From: Candidatus Woesearchaeota archaeon
Lineage (GTDB): Archaea; Nanobdellota; Nanobdellia; Woesearchaeales; SKIA01
Assembly: GCA_046704725.1 (NCBI GenBank)
Contig: JBJKRI010000005.1
Coordinates: 209,579 to 273,578 of the forward strand
DNA length: 64,000 nucleotides
Direction of reading: 5' to 3'
Part shown: piece by piece, positions 30,213 to 48,485 of the stretch
How the letters are laid out: each line of letters opens with the position of its first letter
Numbering within the stretch: the first letter of the stretch is position 1
Notes under the pieces: generated by a model
Database searches by the model: none
The model's input: the letters and a program-made list of their open reading frames with translations, nothing else
What the model was told of the DNA's origin: nothing
Position numbers and translations under genes: made by a program

Positions 30213-30287
30213 GCCCCTGTAGTGTAGTCCGGCCAATCATTTCGCCCTCTCGAGGCGAAGACTCGGGTTCGAATCCCGGCGGGGGCA
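30213..30287 (+). tRNA. tRNA-Glu(CTC), integration target
   Basis: GCCCCTG/CGGGGGC acceptor stem, TCGCC-CTCTCGA-GGCGA anticodon arm, GGTTCGAATCC. Confidence 0.93.
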
Positions 30288-30288
30288 T
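30274..30288 (+). repeat. attL core TCCCGGCGGGGGCAT
   Basis: 3' end of tRNA-Glu; identical copy at 48471-48485. Confidence 0.88.
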
Positions 30289-30338
30289 CGCGCTGGCGGT
30301 ATTCTTTATGCCTACCTGATATAAAAGGAGGCAGCATC

Positions 30339-31511
30339 TTGAAGAATATGACAGCAGCGTTCGACGCCGCGAAGGAAGAGGGCCGGATAAGCCCAGAAGA
30401 CGCCGAACATTTTGAGGATTTCATCAGGGAGTACGGCACCCTGAACAAGCTCTCAAAGAGCTCTAAGTACAAGTACTATTACGTGGCCGCCACGTTCCTT
30501 GGGTGGCTGCACGAGCGCGGCAAGACCTTGACCACGATCGACAGGGATACGGCGTTAGAAATCATCCAGTGGCTCCAGGAGAGCGCCTGGGGAGAGGAGA
30601 CGAGGGAAAGCTACATGGATCGCTTCACCCGGATCTACAAGCACGTGGCGGAGCGCAAGGGTCTTGAGAAGACAGAGGGCTACAAGATACTCGGAAACTA
30701 CCGCTACAAGATAGACCAGAACAACGTCACGAAGAAGGGTATTCTGCGTCCAGAGGAAGTGCTTCGGCTGGTGCATGCGGAGCATGAGCTCTGCTACAAA
30801 GCTTTCTTCGCCGTCCTCTATGAGAGTGGAATGCGTAAACAGGAGATTAGGAGCATCAGACTGCAAGATGTGGAAGCAAAGGGCGATAAGTACGTCCTGC
30901 ACATGCAAGAGAGCAAAACCAAAATCAGACCCATTACGCTTATGGAGTTCTCAGTAGCCTACCTCAGGCAGTGGCTACATTACCATCCGACGAAGGGCGA
31001 CCCGGAATCAAAGTTGTTCCTCAACGCTCACGGACGACCCATCTCCGGCGCCATGGCGAACAAGAGGATCAGACAATTGCTCGCAAGAACTGGGATCAAG
31101 ACGAAAAAGATCACCATGCATAGCTTTAGACACTCCAAAGCGACCGAGATGGCAGAGATCCTGAATGAGTTCCAGATGTGCAAGATGTTTGGGTGGGGCA
31201 TAGGCAGCGATATGCCACGGCAGTATATCAGAGAGCAGAATATCGATGTCACGCGAAGTATCATGCGTGCAAGAGGGATGGTTGAAGAAGAGCATCAAAG
31301 ACCACCTGGAAAAATTTGTTTATCCTGCTCACAACAGAATGCGCTTGAAGCTAAGTACTGCGACAACTGCAAATTACCTTTGGACAGAACTCGATACGAA
31401 GCTGTGAAGCAGAACATGGACAATGAACGCATGATTCGCGCGATCATGGAGGAGAAGCACAAGGAAATCCTCCAAGTACTGCGGCAGGAGCTAAAACTCC
31501 AACCCACTTAG
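30339..31511 (+). CDS. tyrosine recombinase/integrase with C-terminal Zn ribbon
   Basis: YESGMR (R), ESKT (K), HSFRH, FGW, PRQY (Y), CLSC...CDNC; alternative start ATG 30348. Confidence 0.93.
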   Translation: MKNMTAAFDAAKEEGRISPEDAEHFEDFIREYGTLNKLSKSSKYKYYYVAATFLGWLHERGKTLTTIDRDTALEIIQWLQESAWGEETRESYMDRFTRIYKHVAERKGLEKTEGYKILGNYRYKIDQNNVTKKGILRPEEVLRLVHAEHELCYKAFFAVLYESGMRKQEIRSIRLQDVEAKGDKYVLHMQESKTKIRPITLMEFSVAYLRQWLHYHPTKGDPESKLFLNAHGRPISGAMANKRIRQLLARTGIKTKKITMHSFRHSKATEMAEILNEFQMCKMFGWGIGSDMPRQYIREQNIDVTRSIMRARGMVEEEHQRPPGKICLSCSQQNALEAKYCDNCKLPLDRTRYEAVKQNMDNERMIRAIMEEKHKEILQVLRQELKLQPT

Positions 31512-31689
31512 CTACACGCTCGAAACGGTGTGTCCCATCAATCTTCGAGCCCAAGCTCTGCAGAATGGACTGATTTGGGCGTCAAAACATATCAAAATGA
31601 TATGATTTGGAAATTCCCCAATATCAGTACGAAATCGACCCGGACCCCTGTCATAAGCTCTTAAATATCTGCTAAGGGAGTAACAGGAC

Positions 31690-33507
31690 ATGGATCAATA
31701 CAAGAAGCGGGTCAGCACTATTCTTCACGGAAAAGACCAGTATGGAGAAGTCCGCGACGAGTTCGAGGTGTTTTTCGATAGCTGGGAGAAGGTAGACAAA
31801 TGGATCCGCGAAGAGAAGATTTCGCTGGAGGAAGCTACTGAGCTATACAGCTACTGCTACGCGGAAACGCAAAATGCTCACTTCTTGTTCCTCAAATTCA
31901 TCCTCGAACTCGACAATAATCCTCAGTCTTCTTCGGAACTTGCTTCGCAATTGCTCGCGGACGGACTGGTCCCTCGACCGTACGATGTGAGAGTCGCTCT
32001 GCCGAAAATGCGCAAGGTAGTGCGCGACTTCTTGCTTTCCGGCAACACCTTAGCGGCGAGCTCCCTCATGCAGTATTACTGGTTCCTGCGCAATGATGCC
32101 GAGAACTTCGCTCACGAGCGGTTCACGGAAACAGAGATCCGCCTATTGGAACTGTACAATAGCAAGGTTACACATGAATCGCGACTGCCAGTACCTGCGC
32201 GCCAGGCAACTCCACGTGAGGCAATCGGCGACGACTCACATCTAAGCGCATTCTGCACCTTACCAAAGAAATACCGACCCATGATGCTCAAACATCACTC
32301 GAATCGGATTCTCATCGGCGGATATTCCGGTGCGGTCGCAATGGTTGATGCTGCTTCTGCAGATGTCGTCATGAAGGATGGCGTGTCATACGGCGTAGCG
32401 GATATTGGGGTGTTGCAAGAAGCGTTCGTCGTCCTGTCCCATAGCAATAGAAAGGGAAGCTACAACACTCAGGTATCAGCATATTCCTTGGTTGATGGCG
32501 AGAAACTGTGGCATCACAACATTCCTGGTAAGCGGACAGAATCATTACTGATCTGCGAGAACTCGCTCCTCGTTGCTGCGTGGGACGACGAAGAGGCTTT
32601 GGTATACCGGATTGACCCATCTGGATCCATATTATGGAAGGCGATGTTTCCGACTCGCAACGCGTACGGAGCGCTTACTTTGCGTCCCTTTGAACAGCAG
32701 CTTCTTATCGGAACTGGTCTGGGGTGGCTGTATAGTTTAGACTATGAGGGCCACGTGTTATGGGAAGTAGATCTTCGTCCTCGAAAGGCTGACTACCGAA
32801 GATCAAAGACTGCTTCCGTTTTCCTGAATTGTATGAGAGTAGCCGTTGAACGAGATGGATTCTTCTTCGTGGCCAGTCACAACAAGATCTGGAAGATAGC
32901 TGCGGATGGATCAGTGAAGGATAAATTTGTCATCGATGCAAAGGAGTTGGGTATTGAAATTCCGAGCCTCTCGATGACCATCGACGAGAACGGAGTGGCG
33001 CAGGGAGAGGGTGACGATGCTTCTTGGGTCGAACATGTGAGTGACTTGCAGCTCGTCGGCAATACGCTTATTGCGAGCTTGTCAGGCGTAATTCTCCATC
33101 TATCCGTCGATCTCGAAGTAGTACTGATGCGCGAACAAAACAATTCGCACATCATACTCGGTGAAGGCGCCTCGGGAATGTACTGGCAAGACTTTCGTCG
33201 AGAGCTGAACGAAAGGAATCCCTACCAGAGTTACACGTTCCTGCAGGTCATGCGACCTGACGATGAAGGACCGAAGATAGATTTCAAAGAATACGTTCTT
33301 CCCCAAGACATCCGGATTACCGAAGAGCGAGTTTATGCCCTGTATACACGTCGTATCGACTCGTGCCGAGTACTGGATGCTTTCGATTCCCACACGGGAG
33401 AGCGGCTCTGGTCGCAAGAAATTGGCGACCGTAAGGCGTTGCTCTCATGGGACGGAAACTTTGGTGTGGTTGCAGTCGAGAACGAGCTATTTCGCGTTAT
33501 TGAGTAG
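31690..33507 (+). CDS. PQQ/WD40-like beta-propeller protein with helical N-terminal domain
   Basis: repeated GEKLW, GSILW, GHVLW, GERLW blade motifs. Confidence 0.7.
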   Translation: MDQYKKRVSTILHGKDQYGEVRDEFEVFFDSWEKVDKWIREEKISLEEATELYSYCYAETQNAHFLFLKFILELDNNPQSSSELASQLLADGLVPRPYDVRVALPKMRKVVRDFLLSGNTLAASSLMQYYWFLRNDAENFAHERFTETEIRLLELYNSKVTHESRLPVPARQATPREAIGDDSHLSAFCTLPKKYRPMMLKHHSNRILIGGYSGAVAMVDAASADVVMKDGVSYGVADIGVLQEAFVVLSHSNRKGSYNTQVSAYSLVDGEKLWHHNIPGKRTESLLICENSLLVAAWDDEEALVYRIDPSGSILWKAMFPTRNAYGALTLRPFEQQLLIGTGLGWLYSLDYEGHVLWEVDLRPRKADYRRSKTASVFLNCMRVAVERDGFFFVASHNKIWKIAADGSVKDKFVIDAKELGIEIPSLSMTIDENGVAQGEGDDASWVEHVSDLQLVGNTLIASLSGVILHLSVDLEVVLMREQNNSHIILGEGASGMYWQDFRRELNERNPYQSYTFLQVMRPDDEGPKIDFKEYVLPQDIRITEERVYALYTRRIDSCRVLDAFDSHTGERLWSQEIGDRKALLSWDGNFGVVAVENELFRVIE

Positions 33508-33538
33508 CATATAAAAACTCGACCTCGTAAAAAGCCCC

Positions 33539-36500
33539 ATGGAGCTCAACGAGGGTCAACAGCGCGCGGTCACGACCAATACTGGTAATCAGCTGATCCT
33601 CGCCGGTGCGGGCACAGGCAAGACCCTTACGATCGTCGAAAAGGTCGCTCACCTGCTCTCCACCGATGTTCCACCAGCCCATATCCTCTGCTTAACCTTC
33701 TCCAACGAGGCCGCGCGGGAGATGCGCGACCGGATCCATCACCGGACCGGACAGGCAGGGGTTCATGTCAGCACATTTCACTCATTCTGCTTTGACGTGG
33801 TGAAGCGCTTCTACCGGGAGATAGGCTACCAGAGCGAGCCGGGGCTCATGTCGACGGAGGAGATTGCCGTGCTGCTGTTCAAGGAGCTGGGATGCACAGC
33901 GTACAGGGCCGACCTTTACGCGAAGAGTATCCTGAATGCCAAGGACAAGCATCTCCGTAAGGAAGATTATCAGAACTATCTTGCTGAGCTCAAGGAGCGG
34001 CTTGGCGATGGGGATCCGGCGCAAATCGCCCGTACTTGCCGCGACACGCTTCGTGCCTACCAGGAATTGAGCGCCCAAGAGCAGCGGGAGCAAAGAGACG
34101 ACAGGAAAGACGCAAAAGAGCGTCTCGACCTGTGCGATGAGATTCTGGAGTACGAGGAGATGCTCAAGGGATGGGATCTCCTCGACGGTTACTTACGGGA
34201 AAAGAACCTTATCGACTATCCGGACATGCTCGGACACGCGATTCACCTGCTGCGGGCGCATGGCGCAGATGCTCTACCTGACAGCATCACCCACCTCATT
34301 ATCGACGAGTACCAGGATACGAGTCGCATCCAGTTCGAGATTCTCAAGGAACTCGCTAACGGCGTTGAGCACGTATCAGCAGTCGGAGACCAGAACCAAT
34401 CCATCTATGCTTTCCGAGGCGCCTACACAGACACTGTAGGAGCGTTCCAGACAGAGTTTACCGTGGAAGAACCCATTCCACTTGACAAGAGCTTCCGCAG
34501 CACAGGACACATCTTGAACGTCGCTCATGCACTGATCTGCCACAACTATGCAGATCCCGCGAGCTGCCTTCTTGTGCAGCCGCACGACGGAAACGCAGGG
34601 GAGCCAGTCACGTTCAAGGAGTTCCCCACAGGATTCGATGAGGCGGACTGGACCGCGAGGAAGATCCTGGAGCGGAATGCAGGAGGTGTGCCTTTCGACG
34701 ACATTGCTATCCTGGTACGCAGCCATCACCAAGCAAAGGCGTTCGTAGATGCGCTGCAGCGCTATGACGTTCCCTTCGAAGCAACAAGCGCGACCAGTCT
34801 GTTCGAGACCCGTGAGACAAAGGTCGTCCTGACATACCTCTCTCTCATCAGCACACTTGAGAGCCCCGCGCCGATCGCCGATCAAGCATGGTGGAGGCTG
34901 TTCCACTTCTCGCAGCACATGTCCGCATCGGACCGGGCACGACTCGGATTATACGTCAAGGAGAGGAAAAAGTCGCTGCACGAAGTCCTGACGAGCGATG
35001 AGGAGCTACCCCTCAGCGAGCACGGAAAAGAGACCGTCGCACGTGTCAAGAAAATCCTGGATGAGCTCTCAGAAATGCGAAGCCTCGATGTACTCGACAT
35101 CGTAGCCGCTATAGTTGAGCGTACCGGGCTCAACCGGTGGCACGCAAAGAATCGAGAAGGCATGCTGCATATCCGTGACTTGCTGCTGTTCGTAGAGCAA
35201 TTCCAAGAGAAACACAGCCGTGACCTGACTGACTTCCTGTCGCACATCGAGATCCTCCAACAGGTCAAACAGAACCCCGACCTCACAACCTTGCGAATCC
35301 CGAACGCAGTACAGATCATGACGATCCACGCTGCGAAGGGCCTTGAATTTCACACGGTGTTCCTGACAAACCTCTCTCGCGACCGCTTTCCCATCACCCG
35401 GGCTGGCAAGAGCCTGCTGATACCCGACATGCTGAACGAAGAGCTCGCAGACCTCTTTGCGGAAGAGGATGATCCGAAGCGACGGGAGAAGGCCATCAAG
35501 GAGCGCAATCGAGAGCTCAGGCTCGCAGAGGAACGAAGACTGTGTTACGTGGCGATCACACGCGCCAAGCGCCGGCTATTCCTCACCAGAGCAGAGAGCT
35601 ATCAAGACAAAGAGAAAGGCGTTTCGCAGTTCCTGCACGACATAGGATACCCCTTCGAAGATGCTTCTGACATTGTTGTGGACGAGTCAGAGCATGAAAC
35701 CCCTGCCCCGGCAGAAGGTAGTGCCGCGGAAGTCGTTAATAGGCTCAAAGACCAGATAGGAGAGAAGCTCAGCCTCAATGATGTGACAGGAGCCATGGAG
35801 ACCTTCGGAGTTCTCTATGGAATGCTGCAGAAGCGCAAGGACGTGGTTGAGGACTTGAGGCGAGCTGCAAATGAAGCTGATCCATCAGCCATTCTCGACG
35901 AGAGCATTGAGGAGGTCGCGAAGGCCATTGACCGCCATATACGCTTCTCGGTAAGCAGCATCAAGACCTATGCTGATTGTCCCAAGCAGTACGAGCTCAA
36001 GCATGTGCTCCAGATGCCGGATCTTACGCGGTCGGAGGGCGATGCCGCATCTGTGGGTAGCTTCCTGCACGAAGTCTTCGAGGAAGCGGCGAAAAGGAAG
36101 ATCGGCTCACGTGAGGAGCTCCAGAGCGTGGCTGTTGAGGTCTTACCGGAGTACGAAGGTATTGAGCTATCTGACTGCGAAGAAATGCTGGACGTGTTCT
36201 GGGAGCGACACGGAGCGGTTCTGAGCGACGTCCAGAGCACAGAGGAATATTTCATCATAGAAGAAGACGGAAGACAGTTCAGCGGGCGTATAGACCGTAT
36301 AGATAGGACTGGTGATGGGCTCGAAGTCATCGACTACAAGACCGGAAAGTACGAGCCCGACGCACGGGAGCGCGCCTGGCAGCTTGGTCTATACGCCAAG
36401 GCAGTAGAGAAGCTGAAAGGAGAGAAGCCGCGCTTCCTCACGCTCGAGCTGCTTCAACACGAGAAGCCCCGGCGCTTCGAGCTACAGGGCGATGGCAAAT

Positions 36501-36664
36501 ACAAGATGCCGCGCATCGAGATCGACACGGATGCCGCGTTCACAGAGCTGCAAGAGTACGCCAAACAGATCCAAGAAGGCTTGGTGAAGGGGTTTGAGCC
36601 CAGCAAAGATGACGGGCCGTGCGAACGCTGCGGCTACCGATTCTTCTGCCCGAAGTGGGGCTGA
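33539..36664 (+). CDS. UvrD/PcrA helicase fused to a PD-(D/E)xK nuclease with Fe-S-type Cys motif
   Basis: AGAGTGKT, DEYQD, GDQNQSIY.FRG, TIHAAKGLEF, EERRLCYVA.TRAK; CPKQY...GRIDRID...DYKTG...CERC....C. Confidence 0.92.
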   Translation: MELNEGQQRAVTTNTGNQLILAGAGTGKTLTIVEKVAHLLSTDVPPAHILCLTFSNEAAREMRDRIHHRTGQAGVHVSTFHSFCFDVVKRFYREIGYQSEPGLMSTEEIAVLLFKELGCTAYRADLYAKSILNAKDKHLRKEDYQNYLAELKERLGDGDPAQIARTCRDTLRAYQELSAQEQREQRDDRKDAKERLDLCDEILEYEEMLKGWDLLDGYLREKNLIDYPDMLGHAIHLLRAHGADALPDSITHLIIDEYQDTSRIQFEILKELANGVEHVSAVGDQNQSIYAFRGAYTDTVGAFQTEFTVEEPIPLDKSFRSTGHILNVAHALICHNYADPASCLLVQPHDGNAGEPVTFKEFPTGFDEADWTARKILERNAGGVPFDDIAILVRSHHQAKAFVDALQRYDVPFEATSATSLFETRETKVVLTYLSLISTLESPAPIADQAWWRLFHFSQHMSASDRARLGLYVKERKKSLHEVLTSDEELPLSEHGKETVARVKKILDELSEMRSLDVLDIVAAIVERTGLNRWHAKNREGMLHIRDLLLFVEQFQEKHSRDLTDFLSHIEILQQVKQNPDLTTLRIPNAVQIMTIHAAKGLEFHTVFLTNLSRDRFPITRAGKSLLIPDMLNEELADLFAEEDDPKRREKAIKERNRELRLAEERRLCYVAITRAKRRLFLTRAESYQDKEKGVSQFLHDIGYPFEDASDIVVDESEHETPAPAEGSAAEVVNRLKDQIGEKLSLNDVTGAMETFGVLYGMLQKRKDVVEDLRRAANEADPSAILDESIEEVAKAIDRHIRFSVSSIKTYADCPKQYELKHVLQMPDLTRSEGDAASVGSFLHEVFEEAAKRKIGSREELQSVAVEVLPEYEGIELSDCEEMLDVFWERHGAVLSDVQSTEEYFIIEEDGRQFSGRIDRIDRTGDGLEVIDYKTGKYEPDARERAWQLGLYAKAVEKLKGEKPRFLTLELLQHEKPRRFELQGDGKYKMPRIEIDTDAAFTELQEYAKQIQEGLVKGFEPSKDDGPCERCGYRFFCPKWG

Positions 36665-36741: not shown

Positions 36742-37017
36742 GTGGCCAAGACTTTTATGATCAAAAAGGAGGTGAACGCATTCCGTTGCTTGCGTTGTGG
36801 TCATGAGTGGATACCACGGGTGAGTATGGAAGAGCTGGTGGGGACTGTCAAGAACAAGCCGCGCACCTGCCCCAACTGTAAAAGTGCCTACTGGGATTTG
36901 CCGAAACAAAATCCAGATAACCGAAACTATGAATCAACTAACTCGACAAAATTCGGTTCTGAGCAACGAGGACTTAACAACAATAAGAATGGCCGAGTCA
37001 AGAGAGAAGCATCATGA
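36742..37017 (+). CDS. small zinc-finger protein
   Basis: CLRCGHEWIPR...CPNCKSAYW; ATGA overlap with the MTase. Confidence 0.75.
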   Translation: MAKTFMIKKEVNAFRCLRCGHEWIPRVSMEELVGTVKNKPRTCPNCKSAYWDLPKQNPDNRNYESTNSTKFGSEQRGLNNNKNGRVKREAS

Positions 37018-38642
37018 AGTTAATGAAGAATGCCAGTAAAGAAAAATTACGGGGTGGGTTCTACACTCCGGAGCCTATCGCAAGATTTGTGCTTAGATGG
37101 GCAGTAAACGGCAACAGACATTATGATATTCTTGAACCAAGCTGCGGAGACGGCGTTTTTCTCGAACAAATTAAGGAGAGTTGCTTCGAGTATAACTCAG
37201 TTACTGCCGTTGAACTCATTGACGCAGAAGCAGAAAAAGCAAGGAAGATAGGTTTACCGGACACAAAGGTGCTTTCTGGCGATTTTTTTTCTTTCTGTAA
37301 TAAGTCACAAGAGAAATACGATCTCATAATCGGAAACCCGCCTTACATTCGCTACCAATATTTTGACAAGGAGCAGAGAGAGGAGGCTATGCAGGTCTTC
37401 GCTCGTGCAGGTCTGAGATACAGCAAACTCACGAACGCATGGGTAAGCTTCGTGGTGGGCTCAACTCTCTTGCTTAAAGATAAGGGCAAAATAGGTTTTG
37501 TGCTGCCTGCCGAGATTCTTCAAGTGGGATATGCTAAACAGTTAAGGAACTATCTTGCTCATCAATACAACAAGATCAATATTGTTAGTTTTAGGAAGCT
37601 TGTCTTCCCCGAGGCGCAGCAAGAGGTCATTTTGCTGTTGTGCGAAAGGAATGGCTCAGGAAGTCACAACATTGAGCATTTGGAATTGGACGATGCTAAC
37701 GATCTTCAGGATTTGGATGTGGAGAATCTGAAAAGTCCCAAGAAAAGAATTGATTTTCGAAGTAACAAATGGACCTTTTACTTCTTGGACCAAGAAGAGA
37801 TTGATTTTATTGAAGAGCTTCTCCATCAGAAGACCATCAAACCGATGAAAGCCTACGCGCGCGTGGAGGTGGGAATGACCACTGGCAGCAACAAGTTTTT
37901 CACAGTGGATCAAGACACGGTTGAACAGTACGGTCTCAAGACACATGCTAAGCCCATGGTCGGCAGAAGCGTGCAGGTATCGAGTGTTATTTTCAATCAC
38001 CAAGACTGGATGGAAAACGTTGAAAATGGTGCACGAGCGTTCTTTCTATTGTTCCCTCCCAAAGAGAAATTATCTGCGAAAGCTCTCGAGTATCTCAAAT
38101 TTGGAGAAGAAAACTCTGTACATGAATACTACAAGTGCCGTATACGAGACGAGTGGCATGTGGTTCCCAGCGCTTGGGTGAGTGATGCCCTATTCATTAG
38201 GCGGAATAACATCTATCCTCGCCTGATTGTGAATGCTGCTGATGCCTACACCACGGATACGATGCATCGAGTCACCTTGAACAAAGACAGCTTACTCGAT
38301 GGCAAGAAGATCGATATTGCCGCTCTGGTGTCCAGTTACTACAACAGCCTTTCTTTTGCGCTTGCTGAAATTAGTGGTAGGAGCCATGGCGGTGGAGTAT
38401 TGGAACTGATGCCCAGCGAAGCGGAAAGCATCCTCGTTCCTTATGATGAGCGGAACGCGGATCTTTTAGGTGAAATAGATGGTATGCTGAGAAAGGGGAA
38501 GGATATTGACGAGATTCTGCAGATCACCGATGAGATTATCCTGAGAGATCGAGCGGGATTGTCAGAAAAACAGATTCAGATGGCTAATCGCATTTGGAAA
38601 AAGCTTTTGAATAGACGGTTGGGTCGAAACAGCAGCTATTAG
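37014..38642 (+). CDS. N6-adenine DNA methyltransferase (gamma class, Eco57I/TaqI-like)
   Basis: GGFYTP, LEPSCGDG.F, GNPPY, GRSHGGGVLEL. Confidence 0.92.
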   Translation: MKLMKNASKEKLRGGFYTPEPIARFVLRWAVNGNRHYDILEPSCGDGVFLEQIKESCFEYNSVTAVELIDAEAEKARKIGLPDTKVLSGDFFSFCNKSQEKYDLIIGNPPYIRYQYFDKEQREEAMQVFARAGLRYSKLTNAWVSFVVGSTLLLKDKGKIGFVLPAEILQVGYAKQLRNYLAHQYNKINIVSFRKLVFPEAQQEVILLLCERNGSGSHNIEHLELDDANDLQDLDVENLKSPKKRIDFRSNKWTFYFLDQEEIDFIEELLHQKTIKPMKAYARVEVGMTTGSNKFFTVDQDTVEQYGLKTHAKPMVGRSVQVSSVIFNHQDWMENVENGARAFFLLFPPKEKLSAKALEYLKFGEENSVHEYYKCRIRDEWHVVPSAWVSDALFIRRNNIYPRLIVNAADAYTTDTMHRVTLNKDSLLDGKKIDIAALVSSYYNSLSFALAEISGRSHGGGVLELMPSEAESILVPYDERNADLLGEIDGMLRKGKDIDEILQITDEIILRDRAGLSEKQIQMANRIWKKLLNRRLGRNSSY

Positions 38643-40810: not shown

Positions 40811-41112
40811 GCACTCGTACCAGCGCAGGAAGTATTTAAATGACTCTCCATGTGAGGAAAACATGCATAAAATGCGAATCCGAGCGGTTTTGCAGAATTT
40901 AAGGGTGTGACGACGCTAAAAGTGGCTTATAATCTTGTTCACCCCGCATAGTATGTAAGCGGTACTTTTGGTCCGAATAGCCGGCGGAAACAGCACATTC
41001 TCATTTTCGATAGAATTTTTTACTCCGCCGGCAAAATCTCCATGCTGCTACTGTGTTGGGACCTCTACTGCGTCCTCTCCTTCGGTTCTGAGTAAGGCAC
41101 CAAATGGAAAAC

Positions 41113-42078
41113 TCAGCCAAAATAGTCGGGCTTTGAGGAGTGCTCTTCGTCATCGTCATGGCGAATAAAGCCATTGAACCAATCCTTCGTCTGGGGCCAG
41201 CGATCCGTGGCTACCTCAAGGAATGTTTTGAACATTCCAGCCAGCTCCTCGTGAAACATTGCCAGCTCCGGAAGGGTCGGTCCAAGCGGGTTGTCCAGCT
41301 CTGCGTTCAAATATCGCTCAAAGGTAGCAGCGTCCGAATACCCCGTAATCATGTGATGAAATTCTCTGTGGACCTCGTTTGACTTATCCCACCGGACACG
41401 GAGCTTGCCGTCCTGAGTAGAAAATACCTTGACATCGCCCAGTCGCGTTAGAATTACTTCACCCTCAGGCGGGTTCTCCACCGCATATTCCAGTTTTTGG
41501 ATGTGGATAACTGCTCTGGGCTTGATGATCTTAACGTGAAGATCATTCTCTATGCGGCTGATTGTTCGCAGGAGCCAACGATAGAAATTTTCCTTTGCTT
41601 CATCCTCCGTGGTGCCTTTGAAGGATTTCCCGGACATGACCACATCCAGTCTGCGGGTCCCGTAGCACTCCACCCTGATGCCATTGTCGATGTATTGGAA
41701 CGCTACCGGATTGAACTTCTTTTGAGCATAGTATATTGAAATCGATGCGCGGACCGCATGAAGCGCAATCAATCCGGACTTGCGCGGTTGCGGGGCCCGG
41801 GAGGTCTCGGGGGGTGCAACTACGGGGTCAACCTCATACCCCATTTTCCGGAGATTACCTCTATGCTTGTTGGCTCCTTGGCGCGTAATTCCGCAGCGAT
41901 CGTGGATCTGCTGGTCCGAGAGCCCTTCGCGTATGTAACCGAGCATCTCTGCCTGTCTTGCAGTCAGGGGCTTGTTCTTGCGCGTCTCATCAACTGTTTC
42001 TACCCTCCTACCCCCACGCGAAGCAACCTTTTTCCCCGCCCTCTTGGTTGCGCCTGCAACCTTCTTCTTGCGGCTCAT
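41113..42078 (-). CDS. HTH-containing protein, putative replication initiator of the element
   Basis: LTARQAEML...GLS..QI...GITRQGA.KH HTH, then an unassigned domain ending KPDYFG; last gene of the RHH chain. Confidence 0.55.
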   Translation of the reverse strand: MSRKKKVAGATKRAGKKVASRGGRRVETVDETRKNKPLTARQAEMLGYIREGLSDQQIHDRCGITRQGANKHRGNLRKMGYEVDPVVAPPETSRAPQPRKSGLIALHAVRASISIYYAQKKFNPVAFQYIDNGIRVECYGTRRLDVVMSGKSFKGTTEDEAKENFYRWLLRTISRIENDLHVKIIKPRAVIHIQKLEYAVENPPEGEVILTRLGDVKVFSTQDGKLRVRWDKSNEVHREFHHMITGYSDAATFERYLNAELDNPLGPTLPELAMFHEELAGMFKTFLEVATDRWPQTKDWFNGFIRHDDDEEHSSKPDYFG

Positions 42079-42275
42079 TCCCGAGCCTCCAATTGCCAAT
42101 ACCGCAAGAGGTAGTGGAGGTCTCGACGGCCAATCTCGCTCACCAGCCACTGCACGCGATCGTTCTGATTGGCTATGATGATCGCTTCCGAAACCTGCTT
42201 GATGTACTCATCATGTGCCTTGATCGCTGCCTTGAGGCGATAGTTAACACTCTGCTCAACATTGCGGAACGTCAT
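42075..42275 (-). CDS. small hypothetical protein
   Basis: 66 aa; GGAGGT SD; ATGA overlaps on both sides. Confidence 0.6.
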   Translation of the reverse strand: MTFRNVEQSVNYRLKAAIKAHDEYIKQVSEAIIIANQNDRVQWLVSEIGRRDLHYLLRYWQLEARE

Positions 42276-42646
42276 CGCTCCACCTCCTCTTGGGAGGATT
42301 GAGTGGGAGTAGGTTTCCCGGGCAGTCCACCTACACCCAAGAAACTGCCGCGGGAAACCTGTCCCAAGGTGTCAACACATGGCATGTGCTGAGAGTGATG
42401 TCTGTGAGCGCGCTTAGCCATGGTCTTCTCAAGGCGGGCAGAGGTCCGTCGACCTGCAGCCTTTACCTTTTGGCCGGCTCCCAGAGCTATCACGACCCGC
42501 TCAGGCGTGAGTTCTTGGCGGATCTTTTGCCGCACCCACTTGGAAAATTCTCTGTCCGGCAGGTGCTTCTCTATCAGCTCCAGCTCCTTCGCGCCCAGGT
42601 ACACGCAGCGGCGGCGCTTGCTATTGGAAGGATTACGCCAGGTCAC
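42272..42646 (-). CDS. RHH-like DNA-binding protein
   Basis: RRRCVYL...ELIE....FSKWVRQKI; GGAGG SD. Confidence 0.55.
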   Translation of the reverse strand: MTWRNPSNSKRRRCVYLGAKELELIEKHLPDREFSKWVRQKIRQELTPERVVIALGAGQKVKAAGRRTSARLEKTMAKRAHRHHSQHMPCVDTLGQVSRGSFLGVGGLPGKPTPTQSSQEEVER

Positions 42647-42803
42647 AGCCTTCCTCCTTGAGCATGTCTGCGAGCTTTTTGCGTTCGAGCGGGTCAGTGA
42701 CGCCGAGCTTTTCCAGGATTGTTAGCAGAGGTACATCTCTCTCGATCAGGGCCCGTACTTGCTTGCGCAAGGCTGTCCGACTGAGTCTCTTGCGTTCCCT
42801 CAT
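42633..42803 (-). CDS. small basic helical protein (56 aa, not in ORF track)
   Basis: MRERKRLSRTALRKQVRALIERDVPLLTILEKLG...; GAGGTG SD; ATGA overlap. Confidence 0.6.
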   Translation of the reverse strand: MRERKRLSRTALRKQVRALIERDVPLLTILEKLGVTDPLERKKLADMLKEEGCDLA

Positions 42804-42940
42804 CCTTTCGCCACCTCGTCAAGATGTCGTCTCAGAGCAGCCCTGATGACTGCCGAGCGACTGACGCCTTCCTCGGCGCAAATCTTTTCGATCCAATGGT
42901 ACAGATCGTCCTCACAGACGAACCCGATCACCTGACTCAA
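42800..42940 (-). CDS. CopG-like ribbon-helix-helix protein (46 aa, not in ORF track)
   Basis: MSQVIGFVCEDDLYHWIEKICAEEGVSRSAVIRAALRRHL; TTG start with GGAGGTG SD. Confidence 0.75.
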   Translation of the reverse strand: MSQVIGFVCEDDLYHWIEKICAEEGVSRSAVIRAALRRHLDEVAKG

Positions 42941-43071
42941 TCGAACACCTCCTGGAGGCGTCGCTTCACGTAATGGCTCAGGCAGACGAAGCCCGCAAGT
43001 GATGCGAGCCTCCTGAGCTTACGATGCTCATCCGGAGTGAGCCGGATAGTGACCTTGTGTTCGCGAGTCAT
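42937..43071 (-). CDS. ribbon-helix-helix protein (44 aa, not in ORF track)
   Basis: MTREHKVTIRLTPDEHRKLRRLASLAGFVCLSHYVKRRL; TATA-like CTTAAAA ~25 nt upstream. Confidence 0.75.
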   Translation of the reverse strand: MTREHKVTIRLTPDEHRKLRRLASLAGFVCLSHYVKRRLQEVFD

Positions 43072-43338: not shown

Positions 43339-43988
43339 TCAACGCCCACAGCGTGTCGATGAACTTGTCCGTATCTTGAAGTCCACAGATTTACCCAACT
43401 TCAGATCAATATCTGTAGTAAGTGTAACAAAGAAATATTCATCAGATTCTCTCGCACAGGCAAGCGCTTCTTTCTGCGGCTGCGTCAAATATAGTTTCTG
43501 ATTCGTGTTCTTGATTTCAACAAACACGGGTCTGACGCGAGTTACCTGCACGGCATCAAGAACTTCAGTCATTCCTTTACTATCTACATAGAAGACGCCG
43601 TCAGCTGCTACTCCTTTCACTTGGTACGCATACAGTAGCAGATCGGGTTCGCAGCGGATAACTTTTCATCAAAGTCCATGTCAGGGTTTAGAGCTTCCAA
43701 AACTACTTCTACTGAACTGTCAACGTCCTTAGGTATAAAGAAGACCCCTTCTGGTCTCTCGGTAATGTGTAGGGGTAGCTTTCGTGTGAAAATTGTTGTT
43801 CTGTACTGAACCGTTTCCACAGCGGCCGCGGGCGGCGCATGGGGCGATACAACCCAGCCGTCCCCCAGCCACTCCGCAATTAGATCAGCTACTTTCTCCA
43901 CAAAGATTCTGGCGAGCTTCTCGGCAATGACTCCTTGCAGGTTGTTCGCGATGCCCTGTGTGATCGGGATCTTCACCTCAGAACTCAT
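43339..43988 (-). pseudogene. PD-(D/E)xK nuclease, frameshifted near 43665
   Basis: adding one A to the A4 run joins QG.IAE... to KVIRCEPDLLL...VFVEIK...LTQPQ. Confidence 0.65.
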
Positions 43989-44364
43989 CGTCATCTCCGT
44001 AAATATCATCCAGATCCCTGCGAACTGCCTCGGAGATCGCCTGCACTGTTTCTTTGAGCTTGTTGTCTACGTTCCAGTTCGGAACACGTATTGTGTCGTA
44101 GCCGTCTTCATGGCTGTAGTGGGTGCGGTCAATATCGGAAAGGAGTTGTCGACTTGAAGGATGGTGGCTTCCGTCGACCTCGATGTCGAAGCCTCCGACT
44201 TCCTCGTCGTCATCATCGTACAGGATGATTCTGATGTCGATGGTCTTGTGGCCGTCGTGGTATTGCGGAAGCACCTCAAGCACGCCCTCTCTGTACTCAG
44301 CGTAGAGTTCTTTGCGTAGCGCTGCACACAATTTCTTCTCTTGAGGGGTAGCTTGGCCTGTCAC
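43978..44364 (-). CDS. DUF559/Vsr-like endonuclease
   Basis: TPQEKKL, Q...IDI, IEVDGSHH, D..R.....GY.TIR..N. Confidence 0.8.
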   Translation of the reverse strand: MTGQATPQEKKLCAALRKELYAEYREGVLEVLPQYHDGHKTIDIRIILYDDDDEEVGGFDIEVDGSHHPSSRQLLSDIDRTHYSHEDGYDTIRVPNWNVDNKLKETVQAISEAVRRDLDDIYGDDDEF

Positions 44365-45215
44365 TATCTCACCTTGATGTTCTTTTCTTTTAGAACTTTC
44401 ATTTGACGGTCAATTTCTTCTTCGAAGATCTTCCATCGGAATATCTTACGAAGGACATAGTCTGCGACTGGAGTGATCGAAGGCTGGTCCTGTACGAGCT
44501 CGATGAATTCAATCTCCCCGGTGGCTATCGCTTGTACACTACCCTGTCCTTTGCGAGGGTTCTTGAGCTGGAGCTTTAAGAAGCGATCATCACCAACAAA
44601 TTCTATGAGGCGGGCTACGAACTTGTTCTTGCGATTTCTAAGTTTAATCTTGACAACCGCGCCCTGTTGATGTAGCGTAACAAGGCGGGCCCACTTGCTG
44701 AGAACCAAGACGTCCAACCATAGGAGCGCGACTATGGCCCATGCGGGCGGGTTGATCATCAGCATTCCAATGTTTGCCAACCAGAAGATGTGCTTGAAGT
44801 CGCCAAAATTGGCGATTTTTGCGCCGAACAGGATAAATGATCCATCAGCAAAACTCGCAGCGGCAGCTCGCATGCGCTTGTCGAGCCCCTCAAGCACCAT
44901 GTATAATGCAATGAGCAGCAAGACGTACATCCACGGCGCCCCAGACTGCAGAACTCCTTGCAGCCAGGGCCAGATCGTAACGACCCAGCCTACGATTAGG
45001 GCTGGAAGAAGGACGAAGGACGTAAGGAAGTGCAATCCCTGGTATATCTTGGCGTTGCGCCCTTCTTTCATATTTTGATACTGCCAGCTATTTGCTGTCA
45101 TTATCGAACCAAAATAGTACAGCACACCTACGAAGCCTGTGAGCGCAGTTACCAGCAGAACGGGATTGGCAAGTACTTGATCCAGCGCGTGATTAAACAG
45201 CTCCCCAACGACCAT
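44364..45215 (-). CDS. multi-pass membrane protein with soluble C-terminal domain
   Basis: about 5 TM helices; stop overlaps the next start. Confidence 0.75.
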   Translation of the reverse strand: MVVGELFNHALDQVLANPVLLVTALTGFVGVLYYFGSIMTANSWQYQNMKEGRNAKIYQGLHFLTSFVLLPALIVGWVVTIWPWLQGVLQSGAPWMYVLLLIALYMVLEGLDKRMRAAAASFADGSFILFGAKIANFGDFKHIFWLANIGMLMINPPAWAIVALLWLDVLVLSKWARLVTLHQQGAVVKIKLRNRKNKFVARLIEFVGDDRFLKLQLKNPRKGQGSVQAIATGEIEFIELVQDQPSITPVADYVLRKIFRWKIFEEEIDRQMKVLKEKNIKVR

Positions 45216-45265: not shown

Positions 45266-45616
45266 TCAATCTTCGCTGTTATCCTCGAGCAATTGAGCGT
45301 TTGGGAAGCGCTGTTCCAACTCTGCCAACCCCCCGAAGATCTCGGTGAATGCTGACCTGAGAGACTGAAGGTTTGCCTCAGGGTTGCCAACTTGAAAGTG
45401 AATCCGCTGCACGTGTTGCTTCGAACTGTGACCGCCACCACTGAGAACGCGAATGTCTGCTTTCCCACTCTTGCCACTCACTGTGGTTACTGTGAGATCA
45501 AAATCAACATTACCGATAACAGAGTAACCCTCAGGAAGACCCTCAGCGATCTCCGCCAAGCTCTGGGACACAAAGTCCTTGATGGGACTTCCTTTCTCCG
45601 AACCGTTATTTGGCAT
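45266..45616 (-). CDS. Trypco2-like small protein
   Basis: IKDFV..SL.EI.EG...VDFDLTVT...G...I.V..GG......QRIHF.V pattern. Confidence 0.5.
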   Translation of the reverse strand: MPNNGSEKGSPIKDFVSQSLAEIAEGLPEGYSVIGNVDFDLTVTTVSGKSGKADIRVLSGGGHSSKQHVQRIHFQVGNPEANLQSLRSAFTEIFGGLAELEQRFPNAQLLEDNSED

Positions 45617-45758
45617 GCGAGGATGTAGTGAATAAATATTCTATAAATCCAGTGGATTTGGTTGGAGTACGGCAGGGTTTCTGGTGAGGCAGCAGGAGGT
45701 TTAAATCAGCACTACAGGAACTTTGGTACTGTGGCTCAGCGATCCCCTGGTTAAGCCG

Positions 45759-48317
45759 CTAATACGGAATCTCCACTTTCTCCAGTTCCTCCTCGACTTC
45801 GTTGATGAAGGGACTTGGCGACTGTTTCAAGGTGTAGATGTACACGTTCCTCTTCGCTCGGGTCAGTGCAACGTAGAACAGCCTGCGTTCTTCCTCAAGC
45901 TTATCATGTTGCCCCATTTTGCCTGCTGGCTCGAATATCTCCTGGCGTTCAAGGAGACATGGAAAGCCGTATACATCATCGTCCACATTGAGGATAAACA
46001 CATGTTCGGCTTCGAGCCCTTTACTCTTGTGAACACTCATTAGCCGCACAGCGCCTGGTGTCAGTTTGTCAGTCGCAAGCCTGATTCCTCTGGCCTTTGC
46101 TGCTTGCTTGAGCGGGTTTATCAGTGGCGGGCATTGCATTATCCGGCGAAGAATCATAATCTGCTCAGGTCGCACACCTGAATCGATGAGTCCTCGGATT
46201 GTATCCATACAGTGGGTTGCTGTCTGGGTGAAGTACTGCTTCTTGAACTTGGGTTGATGGAGAAGCACGTTCGTAAGGATTCTTCCTGGAGTGTCTGTGG
46301 TTGCACGGACGTTCTTGCGGATTTGAGCATCACCATTGTGGCTAATCACTGCCTGGCCGATTTCAACTATCTCCGGGCTGCTTCGATAATTACTCTCAAG
46401 AATGGTAACTGCAGGATCTGGAAAGTGCTTTTCGAAGTGGACGAAGTACTCTGGCTCGGCTCCTGAGAATCCCATTATGCTCTGCCAGTCATCTCCCACA
46501 CAGAAGAGTTTACATCCGTCGTTTTTGGATCTCAAAGCTTTGATGAGTTCGTATCGTTGAGGACTGATGTCCTGGTACTCGTCAATTAAGATGTGATCAA
46601 ACTCATCGCGAAGGAGCCTGGGGTTCTTCTTCAACGCAGCAGTGGCCTGGTTAATCATGTCTCCGAAGTCAATCTCATTACGCTTCCGAAGGAGCTTTTG
46701 GTACTCCCGATAAACAGGCAAGGCGATCTCACAAAACAGCAGCTGCTTCTCTGAAAAGGACTCATTATTGAGGCGTTCCTGAATCTGCTTCGGAGTATTT
46801 CCATGTGTCTTTGCGATGTTGATAAACTGTGTCAGGTGCCTGGGTATCGCACCACGGGTCGCTTTGGCGGAATCCCACACCTTCTCGACAGCCTCCTCGT
46901 ACGGAATCGGTCTGATCTGACCTTTGTAACCTCGCTTCTTGAGAGCAGTGGTTAGTCGAGACTCCAAGCGTTCCAAGAGTTCACCCTCTTCCCAATCTTC
47001 TTGTGATGTCTCCACGAGAGCATACTTGGTCTGTTCGTTGAACTTAGCGATTTTGAGCTGCATTGCGGCCTTGTATTCCTCAGTCGAGATGCTAAACCAC
47101 TCCGGAACTCGCTTTCTTTTCCCTAACGCCCAATGCTCAATATAGATGTCAAACTCAGGAAGGAAGAAGTCCGGCTGCGGTACCTGGGCTTCTCCATTCT
47201 TCTCATACTTCATCCAATCAGCCTTCTCCTCGTAGAGTAGCTTCACGTCTGACCCGTCAATCCTGTGAGTGTACAAGTAGTTGTAAATTGCCTGCTCGCT
47301 GCGGCTCTTCACGTTCTTTCCGTCCAGAGTCTGATAGCGCATTGAGCGCATATACTCATAATAGTCCTGTTTCGTGGAGAAGTCTACAGGAAGCTTCTCG
47401 TCATTCCCAGAGACTTGGAGATAGTCGAGAACTGCTCGCTGGAAAGACTTGTTCCTCAAGAGCATTTCAAAGACAAGTTGCACCTGCCGAGAACCGGAGA
47501 CCTCCGTATCATTGCCTGTAGAACAAACGCTCGGCGGCGTCCCGCCCTCCTCCATAGCGATTGTCCTCAGGATCGAGTTGCCGAGAGAATGGAACGTCTT
47601 AACCTGAACCTTTACGCCATACCGTTGGAAGAGGCGCTCCTGCATCTCTTCTGCGGCCTTGTTCTGGAAGGCCAAAGCCAGTATCCGCTCTGGCTCGATC
47701 TTGTCTGTACGCTGCAGCAAATAGCCTATCCGGGTTACAAGCACCTCTGTCTTGCCTGAACCTGCGCCTGCTACGACGAGGTTGTTCTCATCATCCACAA
47801 TTACCGCGGTCTGCTGCTGATCATCCAGGCTGAACTTACCCTTACGAAACAGATGCGAGTAGTCCTGCTTACGTGCTGCGACAAAGTGCAAGTTATACTG
47901 CCTAACTCGCTTGGAAAGCTCCTTTGCCACCGTTACGACCTGCTGAATCTCGGCATCCAAGTCCGGCTTTTCTTCCTCCAGCTGCCGGAGGAAGCGTCCG
48001 AGCGCACCTATGCTTGTCTCAAAGAAATTTCTTTTCGAGGTCGTCAGGTATGTGCAGCCTGCCGCAAAATTCTGCCAAATACCATCTATTTTCTTAGGAG
48101 TCCCCCCAAGGAGAGCGACGAACTTGCCTCTACACTCATCGAGTTCGCTCGCTGATGTCTGGTACTGTGCATGGCGCGCACGTAGCTTATCACGACCACC
48201 AGGAATCACAATAAGCAGCCAGGACCACCACCGGTACCGTTTTGCTCGGCTAAAATCGACCTCGGCCTCCTTGAGTTCGCGATATGACTGTTCTAAGGGT
48301 GCCAGGAAGGTGAACAT
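45759..48317 (-). CDS. UvrD-family helicase (helicase IV-like) with inserted nuclease-like domain and N-terminal hydrophobic segment
   Basis: AGAGSGKT, DEYQD, GDDWQSI, SVHKSKGLE, EERRLFYVALTRAK; insert KSRSE..I.NYL...YE...PDFFL....IYIEHW. Confidence 0.9.
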   Translation of the reverse strand: MFTFLAPLEQSYRELKEAEVDFSRAKRYRWWSWLLIVIPGGRDKLRARHAQYQTSASELDECRGKFVALLGGTPKKIDGIWQNFAAGCTYLTTSKRNFFETSIGALGRFLRQLEEEKPDLDAEIQQVVTVAKELSKRVRQYNLHFVAARKQDYSHLFRKGKFSLDDQQQTAVIVDDENNLVVAGAGSGKTEVLVTRIGYLLQRTDKIEPERILALAFQNKAAEEMQERLFQRYGVKVQVKTFHSLGNSILRTIAMEEGGTPPSVCSTGNDTEVSGSRQVQLVFEMLLRNKSFQRAVLDYLQVSGNDEKLPVDFSTKQDYYEYMRSMRYQTLDGKNVKSRSEQAIYNYLYTHRIDGSDVKLLYEEKADWMKYEKNGEAQVPQPDFFLPEFDIYIEHWALGKRKRVPEWFSISTEEYKAAMQLKIAKFNEQTKYALVETSQEDWEEGELLERLESRLTTALKKRGYKGQIRPIPYEEAVEKVWDSAKATRGAIPRHLTQFINIAKTHGNTPKQIQERLNNESFSEKQLLFCEIALPVYREYQKLLRKRNEIDFGDMINQATAALKKNPRLLRDEFDHILIDEYQDISPQRYELIKALRSKNDGCKLFCVGDDWQSIMGFSGAEPEYFVHFEKHFPDPAVTILESNYRSSPEIVEIGQAVISHNGDAQIRKNVRATTDTPGRILTNVLLHQPKFKKQYFTQTATHCMDTIRGLIDSGVRPEQIMILRRIMQCPPLINPLKQAAKARGIRLATDKLTPGAVRLMSVHKSKGLEAEHVFILNVDDDVYGFPCLLERQEIFEPAGKMGQHDKLEEERRLFYVALTRAKRNVYIYTLKQSPSPFINEVEEELEKVEIPY

Positions 48318-48470
48318 GGTCTACTTCTCTGTGGATTCATATATAAACATACCAAAGGATGAAGCCTTTTTCTACCTGCTCATTCCTGTTTGGTTTCTCG
48401 AAACTCTTAAAGCCGAGTGCTACTGTTCACGTCCACAGATCAGGGGTATAAACCATACCGCCCGCGCACT

Positions 48471-48485
48471 TCCCGGCGGGGGCAT
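48471..48485 (+). repeat. attR core TCCCGGCGGGGGCAT
   Basis: exact duplicate of the tRNA-Glu 3' end. Confidence 0.88.

Follow-up and report, generated by a model that had tools for sequence, protein, structure and literature searches.

We analyzed a stretch of 64,000 nucleotides (hereafter, the window, to which all positions refer unless another contig is named) from a Candidatus Woesearchaeota archaeon (assembly GCA_046704725.1, contig JBJKRI010000005.1, positions 209,579 to 273,578 of the forward strand). Its central part holds an 18.2-kb segment that begins at the 3' end of a tRNA-Glu gene, carries a tyrosine integrase gene next to this tRNA and ends with a second copy of the tRNA end. A preliminary description, made from the letters of the window, had proposed that the segment is a mobile element integrated into the tRNA gene. 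Here, we report that this is very probably so, and that the putative element occupies part of a larger variable region. The genome amounts to 1.18 Mb in 8 contigs and is 99.7% complete, and ARAGORN finds 36 tRNAs in it.

The repeat and its probable tRNA target

The following features define the segment (att, attachment site; aa, amino acids; nt, nucleotides):

30213..30287, + strand: tRNA-Glu(CTC), the probable integration target (ARAGORN; Rfam RF00005, 55.1 bits); its 3' end overlaps attL
30274..30288, + strand: attL core, left copy of the 15-bp direct repeat, which, given the position of the tRNA gene, consists of its final 14 nt plus 1 downstream nt
30348..31511, + strand: tyrosine integrase, 387 aa from ATG, unsplit (Pfam PF00589, Phage_integrase, 3.4e-22)
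48471..48485, + strand: attR core, right-hand copy of the 15-bp repeat; all other copies in the genome are tRNA ends

The 15-mer TCCCGGCGGGGGCAT has two exact copies in the window, both on the + strand (30274-30288 and 48471-48485), just as the preliminary description had stated. No further copy with up to one mismatch was found in the window, and shuffled controls gave no match in 100 trials. Genome-wide, the 15-mer occurs three times; the third copy is the 3' end of tRNA-Glu(TTC) on contig C4, so the copy at 48471 is the sole one outside a tRNA gene. The earlier concern that the 15-mer might be common elsewhere in the genome can thus be set aside, with just three copies, two of them tRNA ends. 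Degenerate versions of the tRNA-Glu end (a 23-mer with up to 3 mismatches) were absent elsewhere in the window, and no notable tandem repeats were found. The segment is therefore flanked by direct repeats, one arm of which is the 3' end of an intact tRNA gene, the arrangement by which tRNA-integrated elements are recognized.

As a control, we searched around all 36 tRNAs for repeats of at least 12 bp within 60 kb. Most were T-arm matches to other tRNA genes. Besides the tRNA-Glu(CTC) locus, a copy of an acceptor end outside tRNA genes was seen within this distance only for tRNA-Val on contig C7 (15 bp, 0.6 kb away). There, at approximately 56704-57321, the last 15 nt of tRNA-Val(TAC) recur 617 bp downstream, beside tRNA-Ser; this repeat may be the trace of an integrated element that was very small or has been deleted. 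A 30-bp repeat on contig C6 of the same genome was also considered as an att site and was rejected, as it most likely represents a tRNA-Gln(CTG) gene missed by ARAGORN and the DNA between its copies has a host-like GC content.

Composition and host

The flanks of the region have a GC content of 0.58-0.67, compared with 0.44-0.57 from 30 to 51 kb. Nowhere else in the genome do low-GC 5-kb windows follow one another over so long a stretch, and most of this island lies between the two repeats. The genes of the element rank in the lowest 1-8% of gene GC among 832 open reading frames (ORFs) of at least 150 aa, and none of its 24-mers recurs elsewhere in the genome. Both the window plot and the gene ranking confirm the GC drop that had been noted across the element.

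The host is an archaeon: the archaeal small- and large-subunit rRNA models of Rfam win within their clans, and the closest public-genome genes to its topoisomerase I (72-60% identity) are from Candidatus Woesearchaeota. The earlier assignment to a DPANN-like organism was therefore right. Genomes of its relatives range from 0.6 to 2.7 Mb. The GC content of the host, 0.61, is unusual beside that of two relatives, in which sampled stretches have 0.34-0.42. A crude genome scan detected no CRISPR.

The integrase and its family

The integrase gene starts with TTG at 30339 or ATG at 30348, i.e., 51-60 bp after attL, and ends at 31511, in agreement with the distance of about 50 bp given previously. 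It is one ORF of 387 aa that aligns end to end with other family members. In an alignment of 13 sequences, R163, K190, H258, R261, W283 and Y293 are invariant, and so are C324, C327, C338 and C341 of a C-terminal CxxC...CxxC zinc ribbon; judged by these residues, the integrase looks functional. SSV-type (type I) integration was ruled out, as the integrase is whole and starts 51-60 bp downstream of the core. NCBIfam places the protein near XerA/XerC (72.8 bits, far under the cut-off). Three other Phage_integrase matches are present in the genome, two of them of XerA-like size, and the integrase of the element therefore need not serve as the chromosomal dimer resolvase.

Of 301 genomes sampled from the order, 55 (this genome counted) have homologues of the integrase, with 22-35% identity and ORFs of approximately 400-450 aa; members of the family are also found on 13 viral contigs of IMG/VR. 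We fetched 53 loci, the window's own excluded (the best 11, those of genomes G031 and G289, and the next 40 in the list). At 21 of the 53, a tRNA on the same strand is found no more than 1.2 kb upstream of the integrase, compared with a chance estimate of about 2% (36 tRNAs in 1.18 Mb); three of the 32 loci lacking such a tRNA had less than 200 bp of upstream sequence. The tRNAs concerned are those for Thr (6), Ser (6), Glu (3), Leu (2) and Cys, Arg and Val (1 each), with 1 unassigned. In a FastTree phylogeny, read irrespective of branch supports, the target tRNA does not track integrase relationships closely.

Two of these loci resemble that in the window in their borders. In G031, tRNA-Glu(CTC) and a 13-bp repeat of the tRNA 3' end delimit an element of approximately 7.2 kb, in which a C5 methylase and a NikA-like ORF are encoded. 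In G028, tRNA-Ser and a 13-bp tRNA 3'-end repeat delimit approximately 11.2 kb that encode a TrbC/VirB2-type pilin, an HNH nuclease and a DUF2779/Cas4-like protein. The element in the window shares just the integrase with these two. A third locus (G219) has no repeat of at least 11 bp, and a fourth (G177) runs off the end of its contig. The G028 pilin, of a type known from type IV secretion, is encoded at positions 2763-3092 of G028:C1:265000-284999 (PF18895, 2e-14). Site-specific integration into a tRNA-Glu 3' end by an intact tyrosine integrase, as first proposed, is hence supported, with tRNA-Glu(CTC) as the target.

Comparison with relatives and the DNA beyond attR

A DNA search with the left flank located the tRNA-Pro and tRNA-Glu genes in relatives, and protein comparison then gave the gene order. 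In two genomes of the same genus (G001 and G002), the order is AI-2E transporter, tRNA-Pro, tRNA-Glu, a homologue of the gene at 55119-55517 (69% and 65% identity, respectively) and topoisomerase I (64% and 60%). Less than 0.9 kb separate tRNA-Glu from the 55119-55517 homologue in G001 and approximately 2 kb in G002, compared with 24.8 kb in the window. The comparison of the locus that had been asked for thus finds both relatives without the island. The tRNA-Glu(CTC) gene of G002 carries the identical 15-mer with nothing inserted, and that of G001 differs at two positions. Given the 24.8 kb here and 0.8-2 kb in the relatives, the 6.6 kb beyond attR are also accessory:

48486..55100, no strand assigned: accessory DNA between attR and the first syntenic gene (55119-55517); no integrase, no tRNA-end copy

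Right-flank DNA matched only its own genome among the 41 genomes searched. From 51 to 54 kb the GC content is host-like (0.61-0.65). The low-GC stretch 48486-51200 contains ORFs of 243 and 124 aa that match no family and lack homologues in 40 relatives, followed by approximately 1.5 kb with no convincing ORF, and may be a decayed older insertion. Overall, 48486-55100 is possibly separate accessory DNA, a remnant of an earlier insertion. At the tRNA-Glu locus, 24.8 kb are variable, and the 18.2 kb between the repeats are the part that bears an integrase. The earlier wording, an apparently complete 18.2-kb element, holds for a repeat-bounded unit with its integrase; as the full extent of what is missing from relatives, it falls short by these 6.6 kb.

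On the left side, the 1.7 kb at 28500-30212 part tRNA-Pro from tRNA-Glu, and the two tRNAs are 24 bp apart in G002 and approximately 600 bp apart in G001. The ORFs in this interval are 28607-29368 (or its antisense ORF) and 29455-29979; its GC content is host-like, and one very weak RepB_primase_C match was seen.

Candidate defense and helicase genes

The element encodes, among others, the following proteins:

31690..33507, + strand: 605-aa protein with a helical N-terminal part and a PQQ-like beta-propeller (PF13360, 5e-09)
33539..36664, + strand: 1041-aa superfamily 1 UvrD/PcrA-type helicase with a C-terminal PD-(D/E)XK (RecB/Cas4-like) nuclease (Pfam)
36742..37017, + strand: 91-aa zinc-ribbon protein (weak zinc-ribbon matches); its stop overlaps the methylase start
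37014..38642, + strand: type II N6-adenine DNA methyltransferase, Eco57I-like, with a C-terminal target-recognition domain (Pfam, PADLOC)
38659..39837, - strand: candidate restriction endonuclease of the PLD/HKD family (PF13091, PF09565), convergent with the methylase
39893..40864, - strand: DUF5655 protein, PADLOC candidate PDC-S18 (PDLC04945, 7.5e-124, positions 1-301/302; PF18899, 6.5e-16)
43978..44364, - strand: 128-aa DUF559 protein, Vsr-like endonuclease fold (PF04480, 1.6e-05, 25.2 bits with a cut-off of 20.6)
45759..48317, - strand: 852-aa UvrD-family helicase, helicase IV/HelD-like (PF00580, 3e-54), with an N-terminal extension of approximately 160 aa

The methylase matches PF22837 (8.3e-41), PF07669 (1.3e-15) and, over positions 1-538 of 539, the PADLOC model MTase_II (PDLC03267, 2.6e-200). 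Its convergent neighbor shares H99, K101, G116, S117 and N119 with each of 40 archaeal and bacterial homologues. A structure model of this nuclease, with a predicted local distance difference test (pLDDT) score of 86.9, has its best Foldseek matches in PDB with BfiI (2c1l_A, 1.0e-11), SauUSI (1.2e-11) and R.NgoAVII (1.3e-07). The PLD restriction endonucleases BfiI and NgoAVII (PDB 2c1l and 4rct) share with it a single HKD motif, a full-length Foldseek match and a methylase neighbor; the element's nuclease is only 10-12% identical to them, and with template modeling (TM) scores of about 0.4 and a high full-length root-mean-square deviation (rmsd) the comparison does not confirm the relative placement of the two domains. 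Going by motifs and predicted fold, the methylase and the BfiI-like PLD nuclease qualify as a predicted type II restriction-modification pair, which could act as an addiction module stabilizing the island.

The PDC-S18/DUF5655 protein has a D...ExK-like motif in its N-terminal part, read by eye from the translation, and is a candidate defense nuclease. In the literature searched, we found no mention of PDC-S18, and DUF5655 appeared only in an unrelated genome note. The 1041-aa protein is a combination of helicase (PF00580, 2e-58; PF13361, 2.6e-45) and nuclease (PF12705, 7.9e-32) domains whose similarity to the PADLOC models GajB and RTasHel is generic. The 852-aa helicase scores 1.7e-95 (321 bits, under the cut-off of 543) with the NCBIfam helicase IV model NF008276. 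Each of the two helicases is only a weak relative of the other and of a third UvrD-like gene on contig C6. Both match the PADLOC GajB models through generic UvrD similarity, and we rejected a Gabija assignment because none of the 18 proteins scanned matched a GajA model. No homologue of the 605-aa protein was found: a word-based search of 5.8 billion proteins returned it alone.

Defense-type and helicase genes together take up well over half of the coding capacity of the element. The GC content, the restriction-modification pair, PDC-S18, the helicase-nuclease and the DUF559 protein support the earlier view that the cargo is foreign, low in GC and rich in defense genes.

HTH-X, other putative backbone genes and unassigned ORFs

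The remaining genes, all on the - strand, are as follows (HTH, helix-turn-helix; RHH, ribbon-helix-helix):

41113..42078, - strand: HTH-X, 321 aa counted from M25 of a 345-aa ORF; N-terminal LuxR/GerE-type HTH followed by a second domain of approximately 165 aa
42078..43071, - strand: operon in which five small ORFs overlap at their stops and starts and are translationally coupled
42940-43071, - strand: first-listed member of this operon, 44-aa NikA/MobC-like RHH protein (PF21983, 3.4e-05, under the cut-off)
42803-42940, - strand: 46-aa CopG RHH protein of the operon (PF01402, 5.8e-09, over the cut-off)
within 42078..43071, - strand: 56-aa, 124-aa and 66-aa ORFs of the operon (ORF list)
43339..44009, - strand: two ORFs of 93 and 130 aa, no family match
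44364..45215, - strand: 283-aa near-orphan protein with several long hydrophobic stretches and a basic C-terminal part; one homologue, 46% identity
45266..45616, - strand: 116-aa ORF (weak Trypco2 match, 0.0027, under the cut-off)

HTH-X belongs to a rare family, with 69 homologues at E values of up to 0.001 among 1.84 billion representatives; the ten that were looked up are all metagenome singletons or a pair. By sequence, matches in Pfam, PHROGs, NCBIfam and PDB are confined to the N-terminal HTH. Residues H107, D223, D231, S233 and E239 are invariant in 40 sequences, and H241, H242 and Y319 (the latter in a C-terminal DYFG tail) are also invariant in the seven closest ones. In an AlphaFold model (pLDDT 81.0; predicted TM score, 0.65), the LuxR-type HTH is recovered by VIA with Z scores of up to 7.5 (rmsd approximately 2 over approximately 50 residues). 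Residues 100-263 form a two-repeat sheet/helix domain whose best matches are TATA-binding proteins (TBPs). These matches are middling: Foldseek gives E values of 9.1e-05 to 1e-03 with a TM score of about 0.44 on the target, and VIA gives Z scores of 7.2, 7.0 and 6.7 with rmsd values of 4.7-5.0 over 139-144 residues. A VIA Z score below 8 possibly reflects just a common arrangement, and the assignment of the second domain as TBP-like is therefore tentative. RepDE, a rolling-circle initiator, ranks 48th in the VIA comparison (Z 5.8), which is a lead and not a match. The best viral structure match in BFVD is an uncharacterized protein of an uncultured archaeal virus (2.1e-08 over 334 columns).

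Within the order, full-length matches to HTH-X were found in three other genomes, the rest covering the HTH alone; three genomes with such HTH-only matches are flagged as unpublished and were not used for any conclusion. In G289, tRNA-Arg and a homologous integrase precede HTH-X, and the island to which they belong also encodes a type I restriction-modification system. In G153, it lies 3.4 kb from another tyrosine integrase, and in G097 it is part of a one-directional, mobile-element-like cluster with a HerA/DUF87-type ATPase and a C5 methylase. From these contexts and the predicted fold, we conclude that HTH-X is probably a DNA-binding backbone gene of mobile elements, and it may act as the element's own regulator or replication initiator. 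The G289 island (G289:C2:139000-158999) contains, besides tRNA-Arg, the integrase and HTH-X, an HsdR and an HsdM-S fusion, with a GC content of 0.35-0.39 compared with 0.44-0.49 in the flanks. Two paralogous tRNA-Arg-like genes with unusual T-arm regions lie 26 kb apart in this genome; a 17-bp repeat considered there as an att site turned out to be the second of these genes.

A bolder reading can be imagined, in which the zinc-ribbon integrase and HTH-X mark an undescribed family of Woesearchaeal integrative elements and HTH-X, also present in uncultured archaeal viruses, is a new type of nicking enzyme or replication initiator. What prompts it is the LuxR-type HTH of this protein ahead of a tentatively TBP-like saddle, together with the invariant residues listed above. 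We regard it as speculative and rather unlikely; if it were true, small defense islands would replicate autonomously once excised.

The small RHH operon probably encodes regulators or a recombination directionality factor; together with the integrase and HTH-X, it makes up the putative backbone of the element. The 283-aa protein, by eye, looks like a multi-pass membrane protein. Promoter and terminator scans relied on bacterial consensus sequences and were uninformative. Scans with Pfam, PHROGs, NCBIfam and PADLOC detected no capsid, portal, terminase, conjugation ATPase or relaxase, with the proviso that divergent genes are possible, and no housekeeping families. Likewise, no coupling protein or VirB4-type ATPase was matched, and the sole hint of conjugation or mobilization is the sub-cut-off NikA/MobC-like RHH protein. 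The same four libraries thus bear out the preliminary description in its statements that housekeeping genes are missing and that capsid, packaging and conjugation genes are not recognizable. Its label of a plasmid- or satellite-like defense element is apt in the second part, the segment being rich in defense genes; the plasmid or satellite likeness found no support, as no replication protein of a known family and no virus-interference or packaging gene turned up.

Nature of the element

The tRNA-linked repeat, the intact integrase, the foreign composition, the absence from relatives and the family-wide linkage to tRNAs together argue for insertion by a tyrosine recombinase. We consider it very likely that the 18.2 kb are a cryptic integrated element, i.e., an integrase-bearing genomic island, that was inserted at the 3' end of the tRNA-Glu(CTC) gene in a Woesearchaeota-like DPANN host; the tRNA-Glu hot spot in which it is situated also contains 6.6 kb of other accessory DNA. 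In the mechanism that we propose, the tyrosine integrase would recombine the 15-bp attP core of a circular form of the element with the identical 3' end of the tRNA gene. attL would remain inside an intact tRNA, completed by the copy that the element brought in, and attR would be the displaced tRNA end, now 18.2 kb downstream. The integrase gene would stay whole, as in lambda or pNOB8 ('type II') integration. The RHH operon may supply regulators or the directionality factor for excision, and HTH-X a DNA-binding or replication protein of the element itself. The restriction-modification pair, PDC-S18, the helicase-nuclease and the DUF559 protein would act in defense, and the pair also in maintenance of the island. 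For transfer between cells, the element probably relies on other means.

Several observations weigh against this interpretation. The core, at 15 bp, is short, and tRNA-Glu(TTC) on contig C4, with the identical core, is unoccupied, with no element adjoining it. On the right, the border is more blurred than on the left: low GC extends approximately 2.5 kb beyond attR, to approximately 51 kb, the synteny break spans 24.8 kb and not 18.2 kb, and the 243-aa (48524-49252) and 802-aa (52200-54341) proteins beyond attR are found in none of 40 relatives. Moreover, the relatives with the 'empty site' are distant (60-64% in topoisomerase I), so that the comparison demonstrates absence of the island and a variable hot spot and not a clean attB. 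No known replication protein was found by the four libraries, no integrase relative was encoded among the matches in public genome and metagenome contigs, and HTH-X gave no tblastn match to plasmids and phages and no match encoding a relative in metagenome contigs. Finally, the scores of HTH-X with TBPs are middling, as given above, and the defense role of the cargo nucleases and helicases is a prediction from domains and models.

The points on the right border would also fit a larger or composite unit, an array from 30289 to approximately 55100 (24.8 kb) in which a recent 18.2-kb element meets, at 48471, an older remnant that lacks an integrase and has a decayed distal att site. This is a real possibility, if clearly the lesser one: G001 and G002 have just 0.8-2 kb in place of the 24.8 kb, the proteins beyond attR are lacking in all 40 relatives, low GC persists to approximately 51 kb, and tyrosine-recombinase elements are known to form tandem arrays where att sites are re-used, according to the part of a survey of Thaumarchaeota drawn on here (PMC6563490). 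However, the window has no further tRNA-end copy even at 3 mismatches in 23 nt, the DNA from 51 to 54 kb is host-like in GC, and no integrase, RHH gene or other mobile-element hallmark lies between 48.5 and 55.1 kb; such an array would, in any case, be compatible with the 18.2-kb unit itself. A real insertion that has lost excision and is kept for its cargo only is a less likely state of affairs. No circular or free copy was found in public genome or metagenome contigs, no excisionase was recognized, and the integrase sits on a long, divergent branch of its family in the same FastTree phylogeny. Such a fixed relic is at odds with the identity of the two repeats, with an integrase that retains every invariant residue and with large ORFs that are all open, separated by short gaps and, in the ORF list, never interrupted.

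It is improbable that the segment is a temperate archaeal virus or plasmid with structural or replication genes too divergent to be recognized. The presence of the integrase family on IMG/VR viral contigs, the archaeal-virus structure match of HTH-X and approximately 3.5 kb (42.1-45.6 kb) of ORFs with no or weak family matches, one of them membrane-like by eye, would suit this idea; yet Pfam, PHROGs and NCBIfam reveal no capsid, portal, terminase, HerA/FtsK-type ATPase or known Rep, only a few small ORFs are left unassigned, and defense-type and helicase genes fill most of the coding capacity. That there was no site-specific insertion at all, the 15-mer being a chance or unrelated repeat in a variable region, is very hard to credit. 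The brevity of the core and the variability of the region beyond it are what such a view could draw on, whereas the shuffled sequences gave no match, the repeat arm ends at the tRNA 3' end with the integrase adjoining and the left GC step coinciding, and the same anatomy recurs across the integrase family.

Relation to known elements

The probable cryptic integrated element in tRNA-Glu(CTC) is well preserved and is a further example of a kind already known from other archaea. Cryptic integrated elements of Thaumarchaeota, as described in the part of Krupovic et al. (2019; PMC6563490) used here, have a median size of 17 kb and att sites with a median of 17 bp and down to 8 bp; tRNA genes host 39 of 68 elements, with nearly all of these located in the 3' part. 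Genes for restriction-modification, RHH proteins and zinc-ribbon proteins are frequent in the Thaumarchaeota elements, and tandem re-use of att sites is known. The element in the window is similar in its near-median size, short att, tRNA 3' target and restriction-modification, RHH/CopG and zinc-ribbon genes (compared with PMC6563490, same part). Again from that part of PMC6563490, the tyrosine integrase is the sole widely shared gene and hallmarks of viruses or conjugation are missing; here, too, the integrase recurs and no such hallmark was detected. The differences from the Thaumarchaeota elements are a Woesearchaeota-like DPANN host with a 1.18-Mb genome, an integrase with a conserved C-terminal zinc ribbon, HTH-X in the backbone and a cargo unusually dominated by nucleases and helicases.

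Bacterial genomic and defense islands linked to tRNAs and carrying P4-type integrases also have a duplicated tRNA 3' end, the integrase beside the tRNA and a compositional shift; they bring restriction-modification and other defense cargo and have no transfer genes of their own. Unlike these islands, the present element has an archaeal host, a XerA/XerC-like integrase and a much shorter core.

With regard to the mode of integration, the element resembles the type II (pNOB8-type or lambda-like) class, in which the integrase is intact after integration and att is outside the gene (PMC8371274, in the part drawn on here). The signature of its integrase is R..K..HxxR..W..Y, compared with R...YxxR...Y for pNOB8-type enzymes in the same part of that source (PMC8371274). 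That part of the review, 'Archaeal tyrosine recombinases' (PMC8371274), makes no mention of DPANN, Woesearchae, Nanoarchae or zinc.

We searched the literature on integrated elements of DPANN and Woesearchaeota as well. No description of this integrase family was found there, a result that a 2024 survey of DPANN may change if it covers the family. That survey, by Wu, Liu and Ni in Nature Microbiology, reportedly deals with DPANN viruses and mobile elements and may already list such elements. Given its existence, the claim that few elements of this sort are characterized in DPANN hosts is weaker than originally put.

DPANN genomes are tiny and host-dependent, so each retained kilobase is informative. 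Here, approximately 1.5% of a 1.18-Mb genome is one integrase-borne island made up mainly of nucleases, helicases and a predicted restriction-modification pair, which fits the view that mobile elements supply defense genes even to highly reduced symbionts. The tRNA-targeting zinc-ribbon integrase family, with its cores of 13-15 bp, is a possible marker for Woesearchaeal mobile elements, and HTH-X represents a rare family, combining an HTH with a tentatively TBP-like domain, seen so far only in mobile-element contexts. The element leaves the understanding of how such islands work unchanged; its interest is moderate and lies in the defense-heavy cargo of a small genome, the short-core zinc-ribbon integrase family and the unexplained HTH-X.

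Additional observations

Other low-GC blocks of the genome are located on contig C2 (20-27.5 kb) and contig C6 (1-5, 102.5-110 and 175-182.5 kb). Phage_integrase matches were seen at C6:180674-181138, within a 289-aa ORF, and at C6:96405-96815, in a 180-aa fragment. In view of these matches and blocks, further islands are possible in this genome.

Two tRNA genes in the window are long, at 22078-22173 (96 nt) and 59996-60088 (93 nt), with Rfam scores of 57.8 and 61.3 bits, respectively. They probably contain introns, and ARAGORN miscalls their anticodons.

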